NCBI GenBank assembly: GCA_019058015.1
Contig: JAHLWH010000110.1
Coordinates: 1 to 10,006 of the forward strand
From: Promethearchaeota archaeon
GTDB lineage: Archaea > Asgardarchaeota > Lokiarchaeia > Sigyniarchaeales > SOKP01
DNA: 10,006 nt
Reading direction: 5' to 3'
Shown: positions 1 through 10,006 of the stretch, one piece after another
How positions within the stretch are numbered: the first letter of the stretch is position 1
Layout: each line of letters starts with the position of its first letter
Program-made: the position numbers and the translations under genes
The notes under the pieces: generated by a model
Database searches by the model: none
What the model saw: only the letters and a program-made list of their open reading frames with translations
Told to the model about the DNA's origin: nothing

Positions 1-60
1 GTGTAAAACATCCTTTTTATCTGATTTATATGCATTTTTAATAATTGCGTGAAATTCTGA
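1..60 (-). pseudogene. In-frame continuation of the dehydratase gene beyond the TGA (runs off the window edge)
   Basis: The reverse complement of 60..1 reads SEFHAIIKNAYKSDKKDVLH with no stop, in the same frame. It resembles the 'G-S-E-F..hh' helix that follows this point in the family. Confidence 0.65.
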
Positions 61-552
61 TCATAACAAGAAACCTTTATTTCTATATTCAGAAATCTTT
101 TTTAATAACTTACGAATTTCATTCGTTAAATTTATTGCTTCATAAAGTTTTTTATCAGTTATTTCAACCCCAAAATGTTCTTCCAGTCGAAATTTTAATT
201 CTTTTAAATCATTAATAAAAAATTTTAAAGATATTTTATCTCGCTTTAATGGTGCATTTAAGAAATAATAAAAATCATAGGAAACATGCTCAAACCATAT
301 ATCATATTCGCGATTTGAACAATCACATGCGTGAGTTATAATAATTCCTTTTATATCTTTATCTAATCCGTTTAACCCTCTCTGAAGGCAATTTCTTGCC
401 CAGAAACAATGATTAGGGGGTACGAATTTATCAGCATCCATTAGATCAATTGTTGGATCCCCAAAAATTCTATATGGGATTAAATTCGCTGCTATCATTA
501 ATTCTTCCGGAGTATTAAAACTTGGATCAACATAACCTATTTTGTAAGCCAT
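61..552 (-). CDS. 2-hydroxyacyl-CoA dehydratase subunit (HgdB/FldC/BcrC-BadD family), N-terminal half, ending at a premature in-frame TGA
   Basis: Family motifs IGY..(x)PEELMIAANLIPYRI, NHCFWAR, HACDC and FFINDLKELKFRLEEHFGVEITDKKLYEAINLTNEIRKLL. At 163 aa it is about half the usual length, and the frame stays open after the TGA at 61-63. Confidence 0.85.
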   Translation of the reverse strand: MAYKIGYVDPSFNTPEELMIAANLIPYRIFGDPTIDLMDADKFVPPNHCFWARNCLQRGLNGLDKDIKGIIITHACDCSNREYDIWFEHVSYDFYYFLNAPLKRDKISLKFFINDLKELKFRLEEHFGVEITDKKLYEAINLTNEIRKLLKKISEYRNKGFLL

Positions 553-739
553 TTTATTTTAAATCCGGAAATTATAATTTAATTTTAACTAATGTTTAGT
601 TAAATTATATGATTAAATATTATAAGCTTTTTATTAATCACGAGAATATTCGCTTGAAATCAATACTTAAAATAAAAAAATATTTAAGTTTTAAAACAAA
701 ATACAACTTATAATCTAATCAAATTCAGTCGAAGATATT

Positions 740-1072
740 TTGGAACACGTACAGAATATTCATAATTATTTAGCAAAAGCGACGCTTCAGCCAAGTGTAA
801 GGATAAAAATTAAAATCTGGAACACTTACATAGTTGGAAAGATAATTAAATTTGATAATCATTTGAATCTTTTATTATCTGATGCAAGAGAAATTTATTT
901 GGGACCAGGGGGACATCGAGAAAAAGAACTTGGAAATATTATGATACGTGGTGCAAGCATTATACTAATTGGACAAGAATATGAAACCATAAATCTAAGT
1001 GAAGAAAAAATTTCCCAATTGATGGAAGATGAAGATGAAGGTATAAGTGACAATGGAGGAGCAGAATATTAA
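740..1072 (+). CDS. Sm-like archaeal protein (SmAP/LSm family RNA-binding protein) with an acidic C-terminal tail
   Basis: Sm1 motif IVGKIIKFDNHLNLLLSDARE and Sm2 motif LGNIMIRGASIILI. TTG start, with an in-frame TAA at 716-718 limiting any upstream extension. It lies directly upstream of rpl37e, a known archaeal gene pair. Confidence 0.9.
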   Translation: MEHVQNIHNYLAKATLQPSVRIKIKIWNTYIVGKIIKFDNHLNLLLSDAREIYLGPGGHREKELGNIMIRGASIILIGQEYETINLSEEKISQLMEDEDEGISDNGGAEY

Positions 1073-1093
1073 ATTTTAAAGAGTGAATAAATA

Positions 1094-1294
1094 ATGACAA
1101 AAGGAACACCAAGTTTTGGAAAACATAACAAAAGAGCCAGCCACAGAATATGCCGTAGATGTGGAAATAGATCTTATCACCGGCAGAAAAAAGTTTGTGC
1201 AAGTTGTGGCTTCGGAGCTAGCGCTAAATTAAGAAAATTTAATTGGAGCCATCACGTAGGAGCTTTTAACGGCCAAAAGGCATATCATAAGTGA
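1094..1294 (+). CDS. rpl37e: 50S ribosomal protein L37e (eL37)
   Basis: [11 protein letters not shown]-terminus, [18 protein letters not shown] zinc finger and KLRKFNW. SD-like GAGTGA at 1081-1086. Confidence 0.98.
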
Positions 1295-1359
1295 TTTATT
1301 ATCTAATTTTTTATGATATTAGACTTTTTATGTTTTATTAAATTTATAGATAATATATT

Positions 1360-1893
1360 ATGATAATTGAGAGTCCTCATAGTGGAAAAAAGCCAATTAT
1401 TCATGAATCGGTATTCATCGCCCCAACTGCAGTAATTATAGGTGATGTTGAGATTGGAGAGGGATCAAATATATGGTTTGGCGTAGTGTTGCGTGGAGAT
1501 TGGGGTAGAATTCGAATAGGAAAATTTACTTCAATTCAAGAGAATGTAACTGTTCATACCGAAGTCGATAAAGAAGCAATAATTGGAGATAATTGTATTG
1601 TTGGACATCATGCGATGATTCATGGACCGTGTGTTATTGAAAATGGATGTTTAATAGGAATAGGTTCTAATGTCCTTAATAATTCCAAATTAGGCGAAGG
1701 TTGTTTATTAGCTGGTGGGGCGGTTTTAACAAATAAGGAAATACCTCCAAGAAAATTAGTTGTTGGTATACCTGCTGAGATTAAAAAAGATTTAAAAAGT
1801 ACTGGAAAGGCATTGGGAGAAAAAAATTCAATGGGTTATTATATTAACGGTCAGGAATTCAAAAAACTTTTTGAAAATTTAAGTAAGAATTAA
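1360..1893 (+). CDS. Gamma carbonic anhydrase family protein (YrdA/PaaY/CaiE-like, left-handed beta-helix)
   Basis: Hexapeptide repeats, IIGDVEIG, IWFGVVLRGD, IQENVTVH and VGHHAMIHG (three putative metal-binding His), and LVVGIPA. Confidence 0.93.
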   Translation: MIIESPHSGKKPIIHESVFIAPTAVIIGDVEIGEGSNIWFGVVLRGDWGRIRIGKFTSIQENVTVHTEVDKEAIIGDNCIVGHHAMIHGPCVIENGCLIGIGSNVLNNSKLGEGCLLAGGAVLTNKEIPPRKLVVGIPAEIKKDLKSTGKALGEKNSMGYYINGQEFKKLFENLSKN

Positions 1894-1926
1894 AAATGGT
1901 TAAAAATTACCATAAGTTGAAATTTT

Positions 1927-2808
1927 ATGTTATTAAAAGGAAAAAATATTGTCATAACAGGTTCAGGGCGGGGCATTGGAAAGGAAATTGCATTGACTTG
2001 TGCAAGGGAAGGAGCCAACATAGGATTGACATCAAGAACTAGAGAAGAATTAGATAATGTGAAAAAAGAAATACAAAATATAGGATCTGGAGTAAAGGTT
2101 GTCATAGTGACTGGGGATATTTCAAAATATGAAGATACAGAAAATATTTTTAAAACATTGCATAATGAACTTGGTCCATTAGATGGTGTTATTGCAAATG
2201 CAGGATATTCTCGTAGGGGTTCTTCAGATACATTCGAAATTGAGAAATTCCGACAAATCCTTGATGTAAATATTCTTGGTGTCTATTATACATTAAGAGC
2301 AGCCTTACCGTATTTAAGAAAGGATGATAAAAAAAATAAAGCTAGGTTTATTGTGACTGGAAGTGGTGTTTATCAAACGGTAATGCCCTTGTTTGCAGCT
2401 TATACTGCTAGTAAATGGGGTGTAGTCGGTTTAGTTAAGGCGTTAGCGGCGGAATATAAGAAAGAGAACATTACTTTTAACATAATATTACCAACAATGG
2501 TAGATACACGATTGTTACGTGGAAGAAAAGCGGGTGATGGAAATAAAGATGATTTTATAATGAATCCATGGGATTTAAACGAATATTATCTATTTTTGTT
2601 ATCAGATGAAGCGAATAGAATAAATGATGAATTGATTTATACTCAAAATTTTCAACAAGTAAAAAAAATTATTAATGAAGCCCCAACCGATAAAAAGGAA
2701 AATTGGGAAATATTTCAAGAGTATTTAGAAGAAAAAAATCCTAAACTATTTAATTCCGTTAAAAAATTAAAAAAATTTATTGAATTTCTTTTATTGCGAA
2801 GTAAATAA
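1927..2808 (+). CDS. Short-chain dehydrogenase/reductase (SDR) family oxidoreductase
   Basis: ITGSGRGIG Rossmann motif, GDIS, ANAG, VNILG, catalytic YTASK, PTMVDT. It has a ~55-aa charged helical C-terminal extension. Confidence 0.95.
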   Translation: MLLKGKNIVITGSGRGIGKEIALTCAREGANIGLTSRTREELDNVKKEIQNIGSGVKVVIVTGDISKYEDTENIFKTLHNELGPLDGVIANAGYSRRGSSDTFEIEKFRQILDVNILGVYYTLRAALPYLRKDDKKNKARFIVTGSGVYQTVMPLFAAYTASKWGVVGLVKALAAEYKKENITFNIILPTMVDTRLLRGRKAGDGNKDDFIMNPWDLNEYYLFLLSDEANRINDELIYTQNFQQVKKIINEAPTDKKENWEIFQEYLEEKNPKLFNSVKKLKKFIEFLLLRSK

Positions 2809-2830
2809 GTTTTTATTTCTGTTTTTTTTC
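2809..2830 (+). terminator. Putative archaeal oligo(T) terminator after the SDR gene
   Basis: GTTTTTATTTCTGTTTTTTTTC directly follows the stop codon. Confidence 0.45.
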
Positions 2831-2960
2831 AATTTATTATTTATTAGCATAGAGATTTTATACAATCTAGACTTTAAATGTGCTAAAGATTGGTCTAAAA
2901 ATATTTTATTATATAGCGAAATCTTATTTTTTTAACAATTATTAGGAGTTTTAAAAAAAA

Positions 2961-4193
2961 ATGTATTGTTCAAATTGTGGAAAACAGATATCTGATGATG
3001 TAAAATTTTGTCCCGAATGTGGTGCTGATATTAAGACAGGGATAATACCTACAAAAGCAAAATCTGTCACTCCGACCCCACTTCAGGCTCGAAATCATAC
3101 AGGGAGAAATATAGCAATAATCATCATACTTGTAACCATTCTTATTATGGTGCCTGTTACTATTTTTGTAATTGTCCCTAATACAACATGGGAAAAATAT
3201 GAAGAATCTTTTGATTACTATTATACTCCAGCATCTCCATCGGGTTTAGAGTCAATGGACTTCAATCTCGATATAGGTGGGATGATTATTAAATATAATC
3301 AAACACCAACCCCACATGTTGCGAAAATTGATGTTGATTTCGATATTGAGGGTCCATTTGTAGCTGGGAAAACTTATACAGATTATTTTAAGCCAATTTC
3401 TTGGTTAAATACTAGCACACCCATAACATTTACTTTAGAGTCTAAACCGGACGCTTGGATTTCTCCCATAACATGGTTCTCTTTTCATCAAAATATCACT
3501 GTGACTATTACTCTTAGAACAGATATCATTTATGAGATTGATGCAACTACTACTACTGGAGGTGTGGAAATGACAGTTCCAAGTGGTGTTACTCTTGGTA
3601 ATCTCCAACTTATATCTATTACAGGTGGTGTTTCCCTAAATACGGCTAAAAATTCTACTTTCCAAGGAAATTTAACAACTCAAACAACAACAGGTGGAGT
3701 TTCGATATTAGCAAATGGCGCAAATTTTACTGAAAATCTTTATGGTCACACAACTACAGGGGGGCTTACAATGAATTTTACCAATTGTATTTTTGGAGGA
3801 AATATAGTGGAGGATGTCACTACAGGTGGAATTGATTTTAAAATCTATAATCCAGAATTTACACAAGCCAGTCAATGGACACTTACTTCTACAACTGGCG
3901 GTATTGATATTGAGATTTACCAATATAAGCCAATAGGTGCAAATATAACTGGGCAAGTAACAGTAACTACTGGTGGAATTGACTTGCTTTATGAGGATAA
4001 TCAGGCTTCAGTTGGTGCTAGATTTATTGGAACGACCACCACTGGAGGAGTTGATCTTGCAAATCTTGGAGGATTTACTCAAATTGGCAATGAAATATTA
4101 GAATCCAATGATTATGACACTGCCAGTTATAAATATACTTTTGATTTGCATACAACCACCGGCGGTATTGAAGTGGATGGTAAAAGTGCTTAA
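2961..4193 (+). CDS. Zinc-ribbon domain, single-pass membrane protein with a DUF4097-like (TTGG repeat) beta-solenoid ectodomain
   Basis: N-terminal CSNCG-x-FCPECG zinc ribbon, hydrophobic IAIIIILVTILIMVPVTIFVIV, and nine (T/I)TGG-[VIL] repeats. SD-like AGGAG at 2944-2948. Confidence 0.85.
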   Translation: MYCSNCGKQISDDVKFCPECGADIKTGIIPTKAKSVTPTPLQARNHTGRNIAIIIILVTILIMVPVTIFVIVPNTTWEKYEESFDYYYTPASPSGLESMDFNLDIGGMIIKYNQTPTPHVAKIDVDFDIEGPFVAGKTYTDYFKPISWLNTSTPITFTLESKPDAWISPITWFSFHQNITVTITLRTDIIYEIDATTTTGGVEMTVPSGVTLGNLQLISITGGVSLNTAKNSTFQGNLTTQTTTGGVSILANGANFTENLYGHTTTGGLTMNFTNCIFGGNIVEDVTTGGIDFKIYNPEFTQASQWTLTSTTGGIDIEIYQYKPIGANITGQVTVTTGGIDLLYEDNQASVGARFIGTTTTGGVDLANLGGFTQIGNEILESNDYDTASYKYTFDLHTTTGGIEVDGKSA

Positions 4194-4200
4194 ATAATAA

Positions 4201-4238
4201 TTTTTAATTTCTTTTTTTTTTTTGATTTTTTTACTTTT
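4201..4238 (+). terminator. Putative archaeal oligo(T) terminator
   Basis: Several T runs, including T12 at 4212-4223, beginning 8 nt after the TAA of the DUF4097-like gene. Confidence 0.55.
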
Positions 4239-4297
4239 GTCAAATGTTATCAAGATTTTTTAATTTAAAAAGCTAAACTACAAATTTCCTTATTTAT

Positions 4298-4305
4298 TTT
4301 ATATA
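4298..4305 (+). promoter_or_regulatory. Putative archaeal TATA box for the MBL hydrolase gene
   Basis: TTTATATA ends about 22 nt upstream of the TTG at 4327, which is the spacing expected for a leaderless or short-leader transcript. The AT-rich background lowers specificity. Confidence 0.35.
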
Positions 4306-4326
4306 GTATTTAATTTATTCAATCAT

Positions 4327-5364
4327 TTGGTTCAAAGTCTTCATATGTATAAGTCTGAATTTAGTGAAATTGAAGGGGTTTATCGATTTAAAATAGATGT
4401 TCCATTTGAGGTTAAATTTGTGTGTATATATCTATTAAAAATTGATAATAAGAATGTTCTGATTGATGCGGGTTTAAATTTAGGGGATTGGAGTAAGGTT
4501 TTTTTTTCTGTATTAAATGATGCAAAATTAAATATCAAAGATATCGATTATTGTATTATTTCACATGCCCATTTAGACCATGTTGGCTTACTAAAGAAAT
4601 TTAAACGTAAAAATCCTAATTTGCAGATATTAATGCATGATATTACTAATGAAATACTTAAGTGGAGCACTGATCCTGAAAACTTTAAAGAGATTGAAAT
4701 TTCAGCAAATAAAATGGCTCAAGAGATGATAAAATATGGAATTAGTGATAAACAGGGAAAAAGAATAAGTCAATTTTTTACTTCTTGGCCAAAAATGATA
4801 AGATATCAAAAACCAGATATGCTTTTACACGATGGTGATGAAATCACTTTTGGGACTAATAAATTAAAAATTATTTGGACACCAGGGCATAGTTTTGGAC
4901 ATATTTGCGTTTTTGATCAAAACAAACAGCATCTCTTCTCAGGTGATCACATTCTTTCGGAAATAACCCCACATATAGGAATCTTTAATATATCTCCGGC
5001 TCTTAAAGAGAAATATAATTTCAATAATATTCTTGGAAATTATTTGGAATCATTAGATCGTATTGATAAGTTAAGCCCCAAAATTATCTTTGCTGCACAT
5101 CAAAAAATCATTTATAACCCTCATCATCGTATTCTGGAAATTAAAGAACATCATAAAAACCGATTAAATGAAATTCATAACTTAATTATGGATAGTCCAT
5201 TAACTCCCTATATGATTTCGCAAATTCACTTCGGAGAAGATTTAGACGAAATGAATTCATTTTTAGCGTTAAATGAAGTGTTAAGTCATTTGATTTATTT
5301 AGAACATCAAGAAAAAGTAAAAAGAATCGAAAGGAATGAGAAAATTTTATTTACGGCTAATTAA
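4327..5364 (+). CDS. MBL-fold metallo-hydrolase with a C-terminal winged-helix-like domain (glyoxalase II/LACTB2-like family)
   Basis: LIDAG, SHAHLDHVG (HxHxDH), TPGHSFGH, LFSGDH, FAAH, and C-terminal EVLSHLIYLE..KV. Alternative ATG start at 4345. Confidence 0.92.
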   Translation: MVQSLHMYKSEFSEIEGVYRFKIDVPFEVKFVCIYLLKIDNKNVLIDAGLNLGDWSKVFFSVLNDAKLNIKDIDYCIISHAHLDHVGLLKKFKRKNPNLQILMHDITNEILKWSTDPENFKEIEISANKMAQEMIKYGISDKQGKRISQFFTSWPKMIRYQKPDMLLHDGDEITFGTNKLKIIWTPGHSFGHICVFDQNKQHLFSGDHILSEITPHIGIFNISPALKEKYNFNNILGNYLESLDRIDKLSPKIIFAAHQKIIYNPHHRILEIKEHHKNRLNEIHNLIMDSPLTPYMISQIHFGEDLDEMNSFLALNEVLSHLIYLEHQEKVKRIERNEKILFTAN

Positions 5365-5400
5365 TATGCAAGATTCATTAGATTAACTTAATATCCCATA

Positions 5401-6144
5401 TCATTTTGAACAAATACATTTTTCATGTCTTTGAACAGGAATTTTATCAAAAGACATATTAAGTAAATTTACCATTAACAAATTGTTTTCAAGAGTTTCT
5501 CCAATATTTAATATTGATTTAATTACCTCTAGAGCCTCTAAAGTACCTAACACTCCAGGAGTTACACCAATAACTGGTAAAGGTTCTTCCTTTATAGTTA
5601 ATTTTTCAGGTTCGCCAAAAAAAACACACCTATAACAAGCAGATTTTTTTGGATTAATTGTCATTATTTGTCCATAAAAATCTTTTACACCAGCAATTGT
5701 GCATTTCACATTATTTCTAAGGGCAGCATCATTAACCAGAAATTTCGTTTTGGCGTTATCGCTACAATCTACAATATAGTCTTTTCCTTTGATTAATTCA
5801 TCAATAGATTTATCATCAACATACATTTTTTTAATAATAATTTGTGTATCAGAATTCATATCATTTAATCTTTCTTTAGCTACCTCAACCTTCACTCGAT
5901 TCAATGAACTATCATCATATAATATTTGTCTCTGTAAATTTGATAACTCCAAAATATCATTATCAACAATAGTTAATTCTCCAATTCCAGCTGCCACCAA
6001 ATACATTGAACAAGGAGACCCTAACCCTCCCGCTCCTATCTGCAGTATTTTTGACTTTAATAATTTTTCTTGTCCTTTTTCTCCAATTTCCTGGCTAATT
6101 AACTGTCTTGCATATCTTATTTTTTGTTCTTCAGATAATGGCAT
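5401..6144 (-). CDS. ThiF/MoeB/HesA family E1-like adenylyltransferase
   Basis: RYARQ, GQEKL, IGAGGLGS, VDND.LELSNLQRQ, DCSDN, CYRC and a C-terminal CIC. SD-like AGGAG at 6155-6159 on the minus strand. Confidence 0.93.
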   Translation of the reverse strand: MPLSEEQKIRYARQLISQEIGEKGQEKLLKSKILQIGAGGLGSPCSMYLVAAGIGELTIVDNDILELSNLQRQILYDDSSLNRVKVEVAKERLNDMNSDTQIIIKKMYVDDKSIDELIKGKDYIVDCSDNAKTKFLVNDAALRNNVKCTIAGVKDFYGQIMTINPKKSACYRCVFFGEPEKLTIKEEPLPVIGVTPGVLGTLEALEVIKSILNIGETLENNLLMVNLLNMSFDKIPVQRHEKCICSK

Positions 6145-6293
6145 AATTCTACTACTCCTATTTTTTCTTTATTAAATTTGGTTGATTAAAAGAGATCAAC
6201 ATAATTGTTTTAAATGTTATGATTAAAATTTATTAATTTGCTAAAAATAAAAATGATAATATGGATATTTTAAAATATATTAAAAAAAATTAA

Positions 6294-7490
6294 TTATTTA
6301 GTATTAGCTATTTCTCTGCCGAATTCTACGCATTTTTCCAAACTTTTATCATCAGGGTTCCACAAAGCGCGTATACCGTCATTAATTACAGAAAAACCGC
6401 TCTTTTCTAAATGTTCCTTTATAACCTTTATTGATTCTCCACTCCATCCATAACAGCCGAATGACGCCGCTTTCTTGTTTTTAAAACGCATTCCTTTAAT
6501 CATCTCCAAAATTTCGGCAACACCAGATAGAATTCCTCCACCAATAGTAGGTGATCCTACAAGAATAATCCTAGATTTAAAGATCTCTGTAATTAAGTCG
6601 TTTTTATCGGTTTTTGCTATATTATACAATTTAACATTAACTTTCTTATCAATTTCACGAATTCCTTTTGTAATTGCTTCGGCCATTCTTTTTGTTCCAT
6701 CCCACATTGTATCGTATAATATTGTAATTTGGTTTTCTTGGTAATCGTTAGCCCAAGTTAAATATTTTTCTACGATTTGAGTTGGATTGTCTCTCCAAAT
6801 AACTCCATGACTTGTTGCAATAATATCAATAGGGATTTTAAGATCTAAAACCTCTTTTATTTTTTTATCAACAAACGCACTGAAAGGCGTGAGAATATTA
6901 GCATAATATTTTATGCATTCCGCATAAAGTTCATTTTGATCAACGAGATCGTTATACATAAATTCATTGGCGTAATGTTGACCAAAAGCATCGTTGCTGA
7001 ATAATATATTGTCTTTGGTCAAATAACATGCCATACTATCAGGCCAATGAAGCATCCTCATTTCTACAAAGATTAATTGTTTACCATTTCCTAGATCTAA
7101 CGTATCCCCCGTTTTTACTACTTGAAAATTCCAATCTTTATGATAATGTCCCCTTATTGACTTTACGCCATTTGCAGTACAATATATTGGCGTTTCTGGT
7201 ATTTTTTCCATGAGTTCCGGAAGTGCTCCGCTATGATCAATCTCCGCGTGATTTGCAATAACGTAATCAATTTTATTTAAGTCAACTTCTTTAGATAGAT
7301 TCTCAACAAATTCTTTCGAAAAGGGCTTCCAAACAGTATCAATTAGTACAATTTTTTCTTCCTTAATTAAGTAGGAATTGTAAGTAGAACCACGATTCGT
7401 GGAATATTCGTTTCCATGGAATTTTCTTAGTTCCCAATCTATTTTACCGACCCAATAAACATTATTTTTTATTTTAAAGCTCATATACAT
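6294..7490 (-). CDS. fprA: Flavodiiron protein FprA (class A: MBL diiron domain plus flavodoxin domain; O2/NO reductase)
   Basis: GSTYNSYLI, NHAEIDHSG, LHWPDSM, LFSNDAFG, SHG, YDTMWDGT, GSPT and FGCYGWSGE. No fused rubredoxin domain. The real start may be the ATG at 7484. Confidence 0.95.
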   Translation of the reverse strand: MYMSFKIKNNVYWVGKIDWELRKFHGNEYSTNRGSTYNSYLIKEEKIVLIDTVWKPFSKEFVENLSKEVDLNKIDYVIANHAEIDHSGALPELMEKIPETPIYCTANGVKSIRGHYHKDWNFQVVKTGDTLDLGNGKQLIFVEMRMLHWPDSMACYLTKDNILFSNDAFGQHYANEFMYNDLVDQNELYAECIKYYANILTPFSAFVDKKIKEVLDLKIPIDIIATSHGVIWRDNPTQIVEKYLTWANDYQENQITILYDTMWDGTKRMAEAITKGIREIDKKVNVKLYNIAKTDKNDLITEIFKSRIILVGSPTIGGGILSGVAEILEMIKGMRFKNKKAASFGCYGWSGESIKVIKEHLEKSGFSVINDGIRALWNPDDKSLEKCVEFGREIANTK

Positions 7491-7601
7491 TACCCAAATA
7501 ATTTATTATTATTAATTTAATTAACGATATTTTTCTTCCTTTAAAAATAGCGTTTCTCTATAATATTAGCGATTTTAGTTAGAAACGATCTTTTATTCTC
7601 A

Positions 7602-7847
7602 TTGAAAGGAAAAGAGATTATTCTTGTATTTGCTTCAAATAGAGTAATTTTCCAATATCCTTATAGAGATGCAGATTTCAGTAAAGTAACAAACAAAACA
7701 AAAAATCTATTACTAATTTCTTATGGTATACCAGGAATATCAATAGAATTATTAGAGAATTCTTTAAAGAAATTTAATTATGTGCTTGAAATGATTTCCG
7801 ATACCCAATTTTCTTGTTCAGAAATAAAAAAAATAAAAAATTATTAA
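7602..7847 (+). pseudogene. C-terminal fragment of a stand-alone B3/B4 (PheRS beta editing-like) domain protein
   Basis: LKGKEIIL...YPYRDADFSKVTNKTKNLLLISYGIPGIS.E.LE resembles the C-terminal third of B3/B4-domain proteins. An in-frame TAG at 7548-7550 and the divergent fprA gene leave no room for the N-terminal part. Confidence 0.6.
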
Positions 7848-7912
7848 AAAAAAGTTAGGTATAACCATAAATTTAGAAAAAAAAGATTAATTTATTTAAA
7901 TTAAATTAATAA

Positions 7913-8128
7913 TTATTTATTTGAAAATCCTAAAATAGTATCACAATGTGGGCAAGTAAACATTTTTATTAGGTAAATTCTTTTATTCTTGGATTGTTTT
8001 TCCGTCAATCCTGGAGAAAATTCTTCTCCGGAGAAATCATATGATGGATATTTGAATGTACCAGTTTCAATATTCTGAAAAAAATCTTTAAGATGAACTT
8101 CTTTCTTGCAATATGGACATTTTCCCAT
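7913..8128 (-). CDS. Small zinc-finger-like protein (CPYC...CPHC), hypothetical
   Basis: ATG start, MGKCPYC at the N-terminus and FTCPHCDTILGFS at the C-terminus. Two CxxC knuckles in 71 aa are unlikely by chance. Confidence 0.75.
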   Translation of the reverse strand: MGKCPYCKKEVHLKDFFQNIETGTFKYPSYDFSGEEFSPGLTEKQSKNKRIYLIKMFTCPHCDTILGFSNK

Positions 8129-8403
8129 AGATTTTACACTTTATTTTTCATTTTTTATCGGAATTAATATGATATCTATAAAAAATTGAGTATTTATATC
8201 CATCTGGGTTATTTTTAGTCATTTGTAGAAAAAGATAATATATGAAAATATTTTTTTTAAAGGTTATACCCACTTTTTTTATAAAAAAATTGATATATTA
8301 CTCAGTCTTCTTTTTTAATTTACTTATTAGCATCAATATTAAAGCTATTACCAAGAAAAACTTTTAGAAATAAAAAAAAAGAGCATAGATTTCATCCATT
8401 TTC

Positions 8404-9888
8404 TTAATTATTTTCTCTCCTAATTAGAAAATTTAAAAGAATAACTGAAACCAAACAGAGAGTATTAATTGCAATCCATAAACTATAATATAAATCGACA
8501 GGTAAATACCAGAGAGGTTGAGTCAAATCAGTAAATTTATGGGGGTCATTGGTTTTAACATAACTAACGCCTAAACACCAAAGTTGAGAATATCGCTCTA
8601 TGAAGTCAACAGTATATACAACCACCGAAATATTTGCTTCCGAATACTCTTTAAATTGTGTATTACTCAAACTATAATGAGTGTTAATTTGATCATAATC
8701 AGAATCTAAGAATTCCCCTACAGAACAAGCGCTCCTCATTTTTGTTATGTTAGGAGCTTTATCTTCAATCACATTAAATAATTCATCACCAGTGGGTATC
8801 CAAATCTTATCTTCAATACCCGTCGATACAATTAAGTCTATGCAAATATTGTAAAATTGCTGACGGTATGGATGACCCTCTGGAGGTCTTCTAAGGTCAA
8901 AATCAAAGATTAGATTATTATCTCTAGTAAAATTTAAAGCTTCTTCGAATGTTGGAATTTTAATCCCGCGATACTCTTCCGCTTGAGTAGGAGTGATAAG
9001 ACCCTTAGCTATAGCATAATATGGATCACTATCAACAAACCATGAACCCGCATCAAGTTGTTTAATCTCGGATAAAGTAAAATTGCTTGCCCTTAAATCA
9101 GCACGATCAGAAAAAATCACTTCAACATTAGTTGTTCGCTTGAGTGTTGAATCATGCATTAAAAAAGGTACACCATCGTAACTAATCATAACATCTGATT
9201 CCCACCCAACACATCCATAATTAACAGCTAATACGGCAGCTTTAATTGTATTTTCCGGGGCAAGATGAGCCGCCCCACGATGACCAACGATACCAGGTTT
9301 AGGAGGGAAAGGTCCTTTAATAACAATAGCAGGCACATATAAAAAAGGCAGACTAAAGATAAATCCATAAGATATGATATAACAACTTAAAATCAAAATA
9401 GATTTAGGTTGTCTTATTGAGGTCTTTATTATTGCAAGAATAGGGTCTGCAATAATTGCTATGCTAATAGCACCTCCAATAAAAATTAATATACTTATAT
9501 ATTCAAAAAGATGAGATACTATTGCCGCTTCCTCACCGAATAGGTCTAACATTATAAATAAAAGTGCGTTAATAACAACAATAAGAATTGTTGCAAGAAT
9601 TTTATGTGCTATATGAGGATCAATTCGATTAATTGTAAATATTTTTTTAAGATTGATTGTTAATAAAACAACAGAATATGTTAGTGGAATTCCAATTATA
9701 AGCAAAAAAATTAGAACATAATTTGCCTTGAATCCTATGAAATCTCCAAGATATTCATTGAAATCTGCCCATATCGGTTCTATCGCTATTAGTATCATTT
9801 CAAAAATAAACAAACTAACAAAATCAATTATGAATACTAGAAGCCATTTTTTTCCTTGTTTTCTATAAAATGATGCATACCAAGGCAT
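8404..9888 (-). CDS. Multi-pass membrane glycerophosphodiester phosphodiesterase, GDE2/GDE3/GDE6-like (5 TM - GDPD - 1 TM)
   Basis: GHRGA..LAPENT, WESDV..SYDGVPFLMHDSTLKRTTNV, LDAGSWF, IPTFEE, YTVD and GV..VKTNDP. Five hydrophobic segments precede the catalytic domain and one follows it. SD-like GAAGTGA upstream. Confidence 0.92.
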   Translation of the reverse strand: MPWYASFYRKQGKKWLLVFIIDFVSLFIFEMILIAIEPIWADFNEYLGDFIGFKANYVLIFLLIIGIPLTYSVVLLTINLKKIFTINRIDPHIAHKILATILIVVINALLFIMLDLFGEEAAIVSHLFEYISILIFIGGAISIAIIADPILAIIKTSIRQPKSILILSCYIISYGFIFSLPFLYVPAIVIKGPFPPKPGIVGHRGAAHLAPENTIKAAVLAVNYGCVGWESDVMISYDGVPFLMHDSTLKRTTNVEVIFSDRADLRASNFTLSEIKQLDAGSWFVDSDPYYAIAKGLITPTQAEEYRGIKIPTFEEALNFTRDNNLIFDFDLRRPPEGHPYRQQFYNICIDLIVSTGIEDKIWIPTGDELFNVIEDKAPNITKMRSACSVGEFLDSDYDQINTHYSLSNTQFKEYSEANISVVVYTVDFIERYSQLWCLGVSYVKTNDPHKFTDLTQPLWYLPVDLYYSLWIAINTLCLVSVILLNFLIRRENN

Positions 9889-9924
9889 AATAACTAGATA
9901 TTCACTTCAATAATTAATAAAAAT

Positions 9925-10006
9925 TTAGTTATGATTATTCGATTTTCTCATTTTTTTGTGTTTTAAAATTTGACCATTTAGAACGCCTAAATGTTCTCCT
10001 TTTGCA
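9925..10006 (-). CDS. 3' end of an upstream gene, probably an amidohydrolase (N-acyl-D-amino-acid deacylase-like C-terminus); partial
   Basis: The minus strand 10005..9925 reads AKGEHLGVLNGQILKHKKMRKSNNHN*. This resembles the terminal 'G.htG...G.hLr' motif of D-aminoacylase-type amidohydrolases. Only 26 residues are visible. Confidence 0.45.
   Translation of the reverse strand, partial: AKGEHLGVLNGQILKHKKMRKSNNHN

Follow-up and report, generated by a model that had tools for sequence, protein, structure and literature searches.

A probable Asgard archaeal homologue of the animal six-transmembrane ecto-phosphodiesterases GDE2, GDE3 and GDE6

The 10,006-nucleotide stretch of DNA analysed here (hereafter the window; contig JAHLWH010000110.1, positions 1 to 10,006, of GenBank assembly GCA_019058015.1 from a Promethearchaeota archaeon) carries at 8404..9888 on the minus strand an open reading frame (ORF) that runs as a single intact frame from ATG to stop and encodes a protein of 494 amino acids (aa). 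We consider it about 85% probable that this ORF is a genuine and intact gene from an archaeon of the Promethearchaeia (Asgard) and that its product is a six-transmembrane (six-TM) glycerophosphodiester phosphodiesterase (GDPD) homologous over its full length to GDE2/GDPD5, GDE3/GDPD2 and GDE6/GDPD4. By releasing glycosylphosphatidylinositol (GPI)-anchored proteins, GDE2, GDE3 and GDE6 govern how neurons differentiate, whether motor neurons survive and how tumour cells behave, and we know of no established role for their six-helix domain. The finding provides this poorly understood animal family with prokaryotic relatives, and such compact homologues, which lack tails and introns, are practical for structural work and enzymology; one of them comes from the cultured Promethearchaeum syntrophicum MK-D1. 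In the literature library searched, we found no paper linking GDPD5, GDPD or glycerophosphodiester phosphodiesterase to Asgard archaea.

A phmmer search of the window protein against 1.84 billion representative proteins returned 12,043 matches at E<=1e-3 and 147 at E<=1e-30, and many of the top matches were single alignments spanning approximately query residues 15-488 in proteins of 540-650 aa. A profile built from eight of the phmmer matches recovered, at 1e-144 to 1e-104, proteins of Xenopus, numerous fishes and a cephalopod that are listed as GDPD5, GDPD4 or GDPD2 in NCBI or UniRef. BLASTP aligned residues 92-489, which cover TM3 through TM6, with Xenopus laevis GDPD5 (P0268) at 2e-62 and 31% identity, and the match to a named GDPD2 reached 7e-47. 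The alignment with GDPD5 contains an 18-residue stretch, DGVPFLMHDSTLKRTTNV, that is identical in the two proteins. The sequence motifs quoted in the preliminary description of this DNA are all present in the translation and most of them pair with Xenopus GDPD5 in the BLASTP alignment, among them PKP..GHRG, FDL..PP..HPYR and S..WC.G, and H..HKI at the start of TM3 is aligned as well. The W..FNEYL motif of the first loop lies outside the BLASTP alignment and is aligned in the phmmer matches, which begin at query residue 15, and in the alignment of membrane-region profiles described below. A reciprocal search of the archaeon's own genome with Xenopus GDPD5 ranked the window ORF first (7.2e-62, over GDPD5 residues 72-532); the second match was a gene fragment on contig C219 (1e-12), aligned almost wholly over the membrane region, and the three soluble GDPDs of the same genome followed at 1.6e-9 to 1.4e-6 over approximately 60 residues. 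BLASTP to GDPD5 and GDPD2, the reciprocal search and the 99% branch of the trees presented below all uphold the earlier proposal of an archaeal full-length homologue of GDE2/3/6.

The membrane region was then considered alone, by cutting the sequences six residues before the HRG motif, aligning the Asgard, eukaryotic and Anaerolineae clades separately and comparing the resulting profiles with hhalign. The Asgard and eukaryotic profiles matched with a probability of 98.6% (E 1.4e-15, 101 bits, 187 columns) and with the five helices in register, the reversed control giving 11.9%. The corresponding values were 99.1% (E 7.9e-19; reversed control 1.3%) for Asgard against Anaerolineae and 96.1% (E 3.1e-9, 64 bits; reversed control 7.4%) for eukaryotes against Anaerolineae. 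Given these E-values and the reversed-alignment control, a chance resemblance is excluded, and the earlier claim that the membrane region aligns with that of the GDE2/3 type agrees with both the profile comparison and the phmmer alignments. As far as sequence comparison goes, these results show that homology to the eukaryotic family extends to the membrane domain as well as to the catalytic one.

A 19-residue Kyte-Doolittle scan identified six hydrophobic segments in the window protein (residues 16-34, 60-78, 97-115, 133-151, 164-182 and 471-489), and the same scan gave the same 5+1 pattern in the eukaryote-clade representatives P0174, P0173 and P0159. The Pfam GDPD model (PF03009) matched residues 203-331 at 3.4e-21, the GDPD_2 model covered residues 421-449 under its cut-off, and NCBIfam and PDB sequence searches returned generic GDPDs only, over approximately residues 196-340. 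An AlphaFold2 model computed from a 118-sequence alignment had a mean predicted local distance difference test (pLDDT) score of 94.2 and a predicted template modelling (pTM) score of 0.91. It contains long helices at residues 13-35, 57-85, 93-130, 132-157, 161-183 and 464-493, a further short one at 37-51 and, over residues 199-446, a beta/alpha barrel, the best Foldseek match of which in the PDB was 2pz0 (E 2.4e-15, TM-score 0.85 on the target). The order of five N-terminal TM segments, a GDPD domain and one C-terminal TM segment given in the preliminary description is thus borne out by hydropathy, the AlphaFold2 model and Pfam. The residues predicted to lie inside (the N-terminal tail, the TM2-TM3 and TM4-TM5 loops and the C-terminal tail) comprise 13 lysines and arginines in 47 positions, and the TM1-TM2 and TM3-TM4 loops, predicted to lie outside, contain 1 in 38 together with seven acidic residues. 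By the positive-inside rule, this skew suggests that both termini are cytoplasmic and that the GDPD domain is located outside the cell (Table 1).

Barrel residues kept at 85-100% in each of the three clades are, among others, H203, R204, G205, E212, E230, D232, H245, D246, R251 and D331. In the alignment with Xenopus GDPD5, H203 pairs with the HRG histidine, and it is kept in 96-100% of each clade. Hydrolysis by GDPDs is metal-dependent and employs two histidines as general acid and base, and we take H203 to be the equivalent of H233 in GDE2. According to PMC7033719, GDE2 carrying the H233A mutation is catalytically dead. The HRG histidine and the acidic metal ligands are present in the window protein, and their catalytic roles would, by analogy, be those that they have in GDPD enzymes. 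Conservation also extends to the places where the barrel meets the membrane domain, with P181, K197 and P198 at the TM5-barrel junction conserved at 71-100% across clades, and W437, P458, Y467 and W471 conserved across clades near TM6.

Table 1 Features of the phosphodiesterase gene and other genes annotated on the contig.
Feature	Position in window	Strand	Basis
Complete coding sequence, probable six-TM GDPD ecto-phosphodiesterase of GDE2/3/6 type	8404..9888	-	ORF, Pfam, homology, AlphaFold2 model
Family-specific membrane domain, residues 1-183: 15-aa N-terminal tail (predicted cytoplasmic), TM1-TM5, outside helix 37-51 between TM1 and TM2	9340..9888	-	Hydropathy, model, TM-only hhalign
Linker and GDPD TIM-barrel, residues 184-466, predicted outside	8491..9339	-	Pfam, Foldseek, positive-inside count
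HRG motif codons, H203-R204-G205, start of GDPD domain	9274..9282	-	Alignment to Xenopus GDPD5, clade conservation
TM6 and 5-aa tail (predicted cytoplasmic), residues 467-494 plus stop	8404..8490	-	Hydropathy, model, charge count
LSM-domain protein with acidic tail	740-1072	+	Same contig
ThiF-family E1-like enzyme	5401-6144	-	Same contig
Flavodiiron-type protein (ODP and flavodoxin)	6294-7490	-	Same contig

The gene is found in all four genomes of the window's own genus, and the orthologues in the other three are 85-90% identical to it; a same-genus genome (G144) is that of a Promethearchaeota archaeon, which supports the Asgard host proposed earlier. Matches at E<=1e-30 occur in 37 of 301 sampled genomes of the Asgard phylum (12 of the 90 high-quality ones), spread over several families, and in 13 of 70 genera, and the six-TM GDPD gene is present on the closed chromosome of P. 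syntrophicum MK-D1. The titles of the genomes with the gene include Heimdall-, Thor-, Hel-, Hermod-, Hod- and Promethearchaeota. An organism name accompanied 20 of the 120 matches listed, 19 of them Asgard (Hel-, Hermod-, Hod-, Loki- and Promethearchaeota) and one Bathyarchaeia. Prokaryotes were also scanned with one genome per species and an Anaerolineae query for ranking. The best 80 of the 571 confirmed stretches consisted of 27 with Chloroflexota titles (Anaerolineaceae, Brevefilum and the like), 25 with Asgard titles, three titled 'uncultured archaeon', three with other titles (Deferrimicrobium, Nanopelagicaceae and Bathyarchaeia) and 22 that matched in the GDPD domain only, at 2e-23 or weaker. 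The only full-length matches outside Asgard archaea among these best 80 of 571 stretches were from Anaerolineae, and 3 of 401 sampled Chloroflexota genomes match, including the genome that supplied the query. The three stretches with other titles (L032, Deferrimicrobium; L056, Nanopelagicaceae; L048, Bathyarchaeia; all from 'SMAG' bins) coincide with places in the Asgard-phylum genomes G294, G159 and G292, respectively; their titles look wrong, the genomes being Asgard by genome grouping.

Among eukaryotes, labels were obtained for vertebrates, a cephalopod, the ichthyosporean Chromosphaera perkinsii and the coccidia Cystoisospora suis and Besnoitia besnoiti; the EukProt gene-identifier prefix Nk52_evm is that of C. 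perkinsii, an ichthyosporean, in PMC6981761. These labels cover the eukaryote clade apart from four deep representatives (P0227, P0255, P0135 and P0212), and the clusters nearest to P0227 are chordate GDPD5 and GDPD2. The family had been described as one of animals, a description that has to be widened to an ichthyosporean and two coccidia.

Additional copies of the gene were observed in some Asgard genomes. Head-to-tail pairs of six-TM GDPD genes lie on one contig in two other genomes (G071:C42:26537-29708 and G159:C45:3-3022), indicating that tandem duplication occurs in the family. The window's genome contains a truncated second copy (G000:C219:3-704, L002) that encodes residues 1-234, is 85% identical and runs off the end of its contig; it may represent a paralogue, or the bin may contain strain variation.

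To place these proteins, a FastTree phylogeny was computed from 174 rows, namely the window protein, 106 of 150 representatives with at least 430 aa and 67 locus-translated proteins, the 44 shorter representatives being left out. The six-TM proteins were split from the domain-only GDPDs on a 99% branch, both in this tree and in a 65-row IQ-TREE analysis. In FastTree they fell into three clades joined by an unresolved fork: Anaerolineae (37 rows, 100%), unlabelled and then eukaryotic sequences (62 rows, 94%) and Asgard (65 rows, 95%). On the sequences sampled, the family is thus shown to have three clades, Asgard, eukaryotic and Anaerolineae. The window protein belongs to the Asgard group and not to the eukaryotic GDE2/3/6 clade. 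The IQ-TREE 'quick' tree (LG+C20 with posterior mean site frequencies, PMSF) used 65 chosen rows and was rooted with seven domain-only GDPDs, a half-length outgroup. It recovered the eukaryotes as one clade (98%), at whose base stand the coccidia together with the ichthyosporean and two sequences lacking labels, and the Anaerolineae as another (100%), and it joined these two with a Shimodaira-Hasegawa-like approximate likelihood ratio test (SH-aLRT) value of 99. The Asgard sequences are paraphyletic at the base of this outgroup-rooted tree and a clade in FastTree, so that their monophyly depends on the root. The best tree with Asgard and eukaryotic sequences together was 4.77 log-likelihood units worse, with a p-value of 0.391 in the approximately unbiased (AU) test (p-AU). 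In four-constraint AU tests (IQ-TREE LG+F+G4, fast constrained searches), p-AU was 0.289 for Asgard+eukaryotes, 0.137 for Asgard+Anaerolineae, 0.638 for eukaryotes+Anaerolineae and 0.269 for Asgard monophyly. None of the four arrangements was rejected, and the branching order of the three clades is therefore not settled. In neither tree were the eukaryotic or the archaeal sequences nested among bacterial ones; nesting of the archaeal sequence among widespread bacterial homologues was what the preliminary description had said would speak against a protein resembling the eukaryotic signature proteins. Because the clade order is not settled, that 'eukaryotic-signature' reading is allowed, and the presence of the gene in several Asgard lineages agrees with it; it stands as a candidate.

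Against this background, we consider the chances even that the eukaryotic family arose by horizontal transfer, either into an early holozoan or another eukaryote from an Asgard or Anaerolineae-like prokaryote, or from eukaryotes to prokaryotes. The gene is patchy everywhere, in the Asgard phylum and in the Chloroflexota alike; the eukaryotes labelled comprise only animals, a single ichthyosporean and two coccidia that parasitise animals; the eukaryotes and Anaerolineae are joined with high SH-aLRT support in the quick tree; and the eukaryotic sequences show no specific affinity to those titled Heimdallarchaeota. These points are countered by the AU tests, which reject no arrangement, the grouping of Asgard with eukaryotes included, and by the membrane domain, for which the eukaryotic profile scores 101 bits against Asgard and 64 bits against Anaerolineae. 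Moreover, the eukaryotic sequences are united in a single clade in which those from non-animals are basal, a pattern that fits one old acquisition, and the four deep representatives without labels mean that the eukaryotic range may be wider than the labels indicate. The Anaerolineae clade and the patchy distribution make this family a test case for vertical descent versus transfer.

With regard to function, the six-helix bundle would hold the barrel against the membrane with the active site at the outer leaflet, where metal-dependent His/His GDPD chemistry would cleave a head-group phosphodiester at or in that leaflet. Inositol- and glycerol-phospholipids, lysolipids and lipid anchors are candidate substrates. 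We give slightly better than even odds to the view that the helix bundle positions the active site for the head groups of lipids, lysolipids or lipid anchors. The window's genome has three myo-inositol-1-phosphate synthase domains, so inositol compounds are plausibly made, as well as its three soluble GDPDs. On one contig of this genome (G000:C177:11118-17868), about 6 kb separates a myo-inositol-1-phosphate synthase domain from a soluble GDPD gene.

A possible but rather doubtful alternative is that the protein is a cell-surface version of GlpQ that scavenges, converting soluble glycerophosphodiesters of decaying biomass to glycerol phosphate, inositol or phosphate, with the membrane domain acting as a tether. 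The solved relatives of the barrel are all GDPDs acting on soluble diesters or a GDPD phospholipase D acting on a lysolipid, as this explanation would have it. Among the best 80 of the 571 stretches, Anaerolineae are the sole prokaryotes besides Asgard archaea to carry the gene, and the two share anoxic sediment and digester habitats. Of the 27 Anaerolineae loci (L005-L031), 16 have a PfkB sugar kinase after the gene, 15 a neighbouring C_GCAxxG_C_C protein and 14 a SulP/STAS permease before it; the kinase and the permease would suit scavenging, although this synteny may reflect close kinship only. GDE2 itself is described as freeing choline from glycerophosphocholine in vitro in PMC7033719. 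Scavenging is harder to reconcile with a membrane domain of six helices that is recognisable across Asgard archaea, bacteria and eukaryotes, which a mere tether would not need, and with a genome that already has three soluble GDPDs.

A fuller scenario, which we regard as unlikely, is that the six-TM GDE arose in Asgard archaea and passed vertically to eukaryotes together with the Asgard-derived inositol-lipid and GPI-anchor toolkit (reported for GPI synthesis in a 2026 Nature paper), that in Asgard archaea it cuts the head groups of outer-leaflet inositol-phospholipids or lipid-anchored surface proteins, and that the Anaerolineae obtained it by a later transfer from near the eukaryotic stem. 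GPI-anchor synthesis and the transamidase are described as Asgard-derived in PMC12872458; the word 'phosphodiesterase' is absent from the main text of that article, and its supplements or extended data may list the family. For eukaryogenesis, the family would add a predicted membrane-surface lipid-remodelling enzyme to the short list of those shared almost exclusively by Asgard archaea and eukaryotes.

It is very improbable that the window protein is instead a generic bacterial membrane GDPD of the type that combines PF10110 (GPDPase_memb) with the catalytic domain, or a chance juxtaposition of hydrophobic segments and a GDPD domain. Bacterial proteins with PF10110 and PF03009, about 600-630 aa in length, are common among the weaker matches. 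Nevertheless, Pfam gave no PF10110 match in the window protein (P0001) even at E<=1, and the PF10110 membrane domains of 12 bacterial membrane GDPDs reached hhalign probabilities of only 2.6%, 0.3% and 0.3% against the Asgard, eukaryotic and Anaerolineae TM alignments, respectively. The eukaryotic profile likewise separates six-TM relatives, at 1e-64 to 1e-70, from generic GDPDs, at 6e-32 or weaker. The best matches are therefore not generic bacterial membrane GDPDs lacking alignment over the TM region, the result named in the preliminary description as one that would have told against homology. Mis-binned eukaryotic DNA is scarcely credible: although the metagenome-assembled genome comprises 283 contigs with 3.4% estimated contamination, the 85-90% identical orthologues occur in all three other genomes of the genus, one relative is encoded by a closed Asgard chromosome, introns are absent from the gene, the genes around it are of archaeal type, the guanine-plus-cytosine (GC) content of the contig is low and even, and the Asgard sequences stand apart from the eukaryotic clade in both trees.

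Some observations weigh against assigning the archaeal protein to the GDE2/3/6 type or to a GDE-like activity. The Pfam GDPD model matched over the first 105 of its 244 positions only, which indicates that the barrel is divergent in sequence, although Foldseek still covers it. In the PDB copy searched with Foldseek, no chain covered the membrane part and no solved six-TM structure was found. The long cytoplasmic tails of the eukaryotic type are absent from the window protein, the tails of which are 15 aa (N-terminal) and 5 aa (C-terminal); the median N- and C-terminal tails are 11 and 12 aa in Asgard proteins, 37 and 33 aa in eukaryotes and 12 and 56.5 aa in Anaerolineae. The neighbours of the Asgard genes are conserved in no more than groups of 6 related loci, and the lack of wider conservation means that gene context offers no functional hint. 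Finally, Peptidase_C13 and Gaa1 of the GPI transamidase were not found in the window's genome, which is 94% complete; the Gaa1 control was positive in 0 of 14 control genomes, so the blank for Gaa1 says little. Shedding of GPI-type anchors consequently lacks support in this genome. PIG-L gave 7 matches there, in a family that is broad.

Across the 301 Asgard genomes, Peptidase_C13 occurs in 21 of the 37 genomes with the six-TM GDPD gene and in 88 of the 264 without it, a modest co-occurrence in counts that are uncorrected for kinship and concern a peptidase family that is not specific to the GPI transamidase. At one Asgard locus (L087, G113:C11:48000-62000), about 4.5 kb separates the six-TM GDPD gene from a gene for a Peptidase_C13 of 497 aa, and between them is a gene for a 1470-aa protein with a weak prenyltransferase-toroid match. 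In the five further genomes checked, different contigs carry the two.

The window contig is uniformly AT-rich. None of its LSM, ThiF-family and flavodiiron-type genes is kept beside the phosphodiesterase gene in other Asgard loci. At 2961-4193 on the plus strand, the window encodes a protein of 410 aa that combines a zinc ribbon at its N-terminus with a single hydrophobic segment and approximately ten repeats that contain a TTTGG[VIL] motif; Pfam sees the zinc ribbon only. Downstream of the phosphodiesterase gene is a 556-base spacer (7848-8403) with no ORF of at least 80 aa, and the windows of the GC scan that cover it have the lowest values of the contig (0.22 for 7501-8500); Rfam reported no family at its gathering score in the analysed stretch, the spacer included.

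Among known systems, the window protein shares its organisation with the animal enzymes, ecto-phosphodiesterases with six TM helices whose substrates are GPI-anchored proteins or glycerophosphoinositol. The hallmarks of GDE2/3/6 are given in PMC7033719 as six TM helices, an ectodomain that carries out catalysis and tails inside the cell. The archaeal protein resembles animal GDE2 (GDPD5), GDE3 (GDPD2) and GDE6 (GDPD4) in the order of five TM segments, GDPD domain and one TM segment, in the predicted topology, in homology across TM1-TM6 and the barrel and in the HRG, E.D and HD residues, and groups with them apart from other GDPDs; it differs from them in sequence, with an identity of 27-31%. 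A Cys-rich N-terminal motif was found in 6 of 267 proteins, all in the eukaryote clade, and the Asgard proteins lack it. The long regulatory tails, with their trafficking signals, are a eukaryote-specific elaboration and do not define the fold, and the Asgard proteins, judged from their sequences, are the minimal form of the family. Automatic annotation at the Joint Genome Institute (JGI) names two of the Asgard relatives 'glycerophosphoinositol inositolphosphodiesterase', so that pipelines have already registered the resemblance.

Prokaryotic systems divide into those that share this architecture and those that do not. The six-TM GDPDs of Anaerolineae (Anaerolineaceae and Brevefilum) have the same architecture as the window protein, a membrane domain related to the Asgard one with 99.1% probability and an identity of 27-31%, but they form a separate clade with 100% support, carry long low-complexity C-terminal tails and have conserved PfkB, C_GCAxxG_C_C and SulP neighbours, which the Asgard genes lack. 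The bacterial GDPDs with PF10110 also place a multi-pass membrane region before the GDPD domain; that region is unrelated and is about 350 aa long, compared with about 190 aa in the six-TM family. Soluble GlpQ/UgpQ enzymes (PDB 2pz0, 5t9b and 3qvq) and the Staphylococcus aureus lysophosphatidylglycerol phospholipase D (8ghh) have in common with the window protein the TIM-barrel and the N-terminal catalytic motifs, but they have no membrane domain, resemble it mainly over residues ~196-340 and fall outside the six-TM grouping. The earlier statement that ordinary prokaryotic GlpQ/UgpQ lack this architecture agrees with the soluble types, and has to be supplemented by the bacterial clade in the Anaerolineae, in which the same architecture is found.

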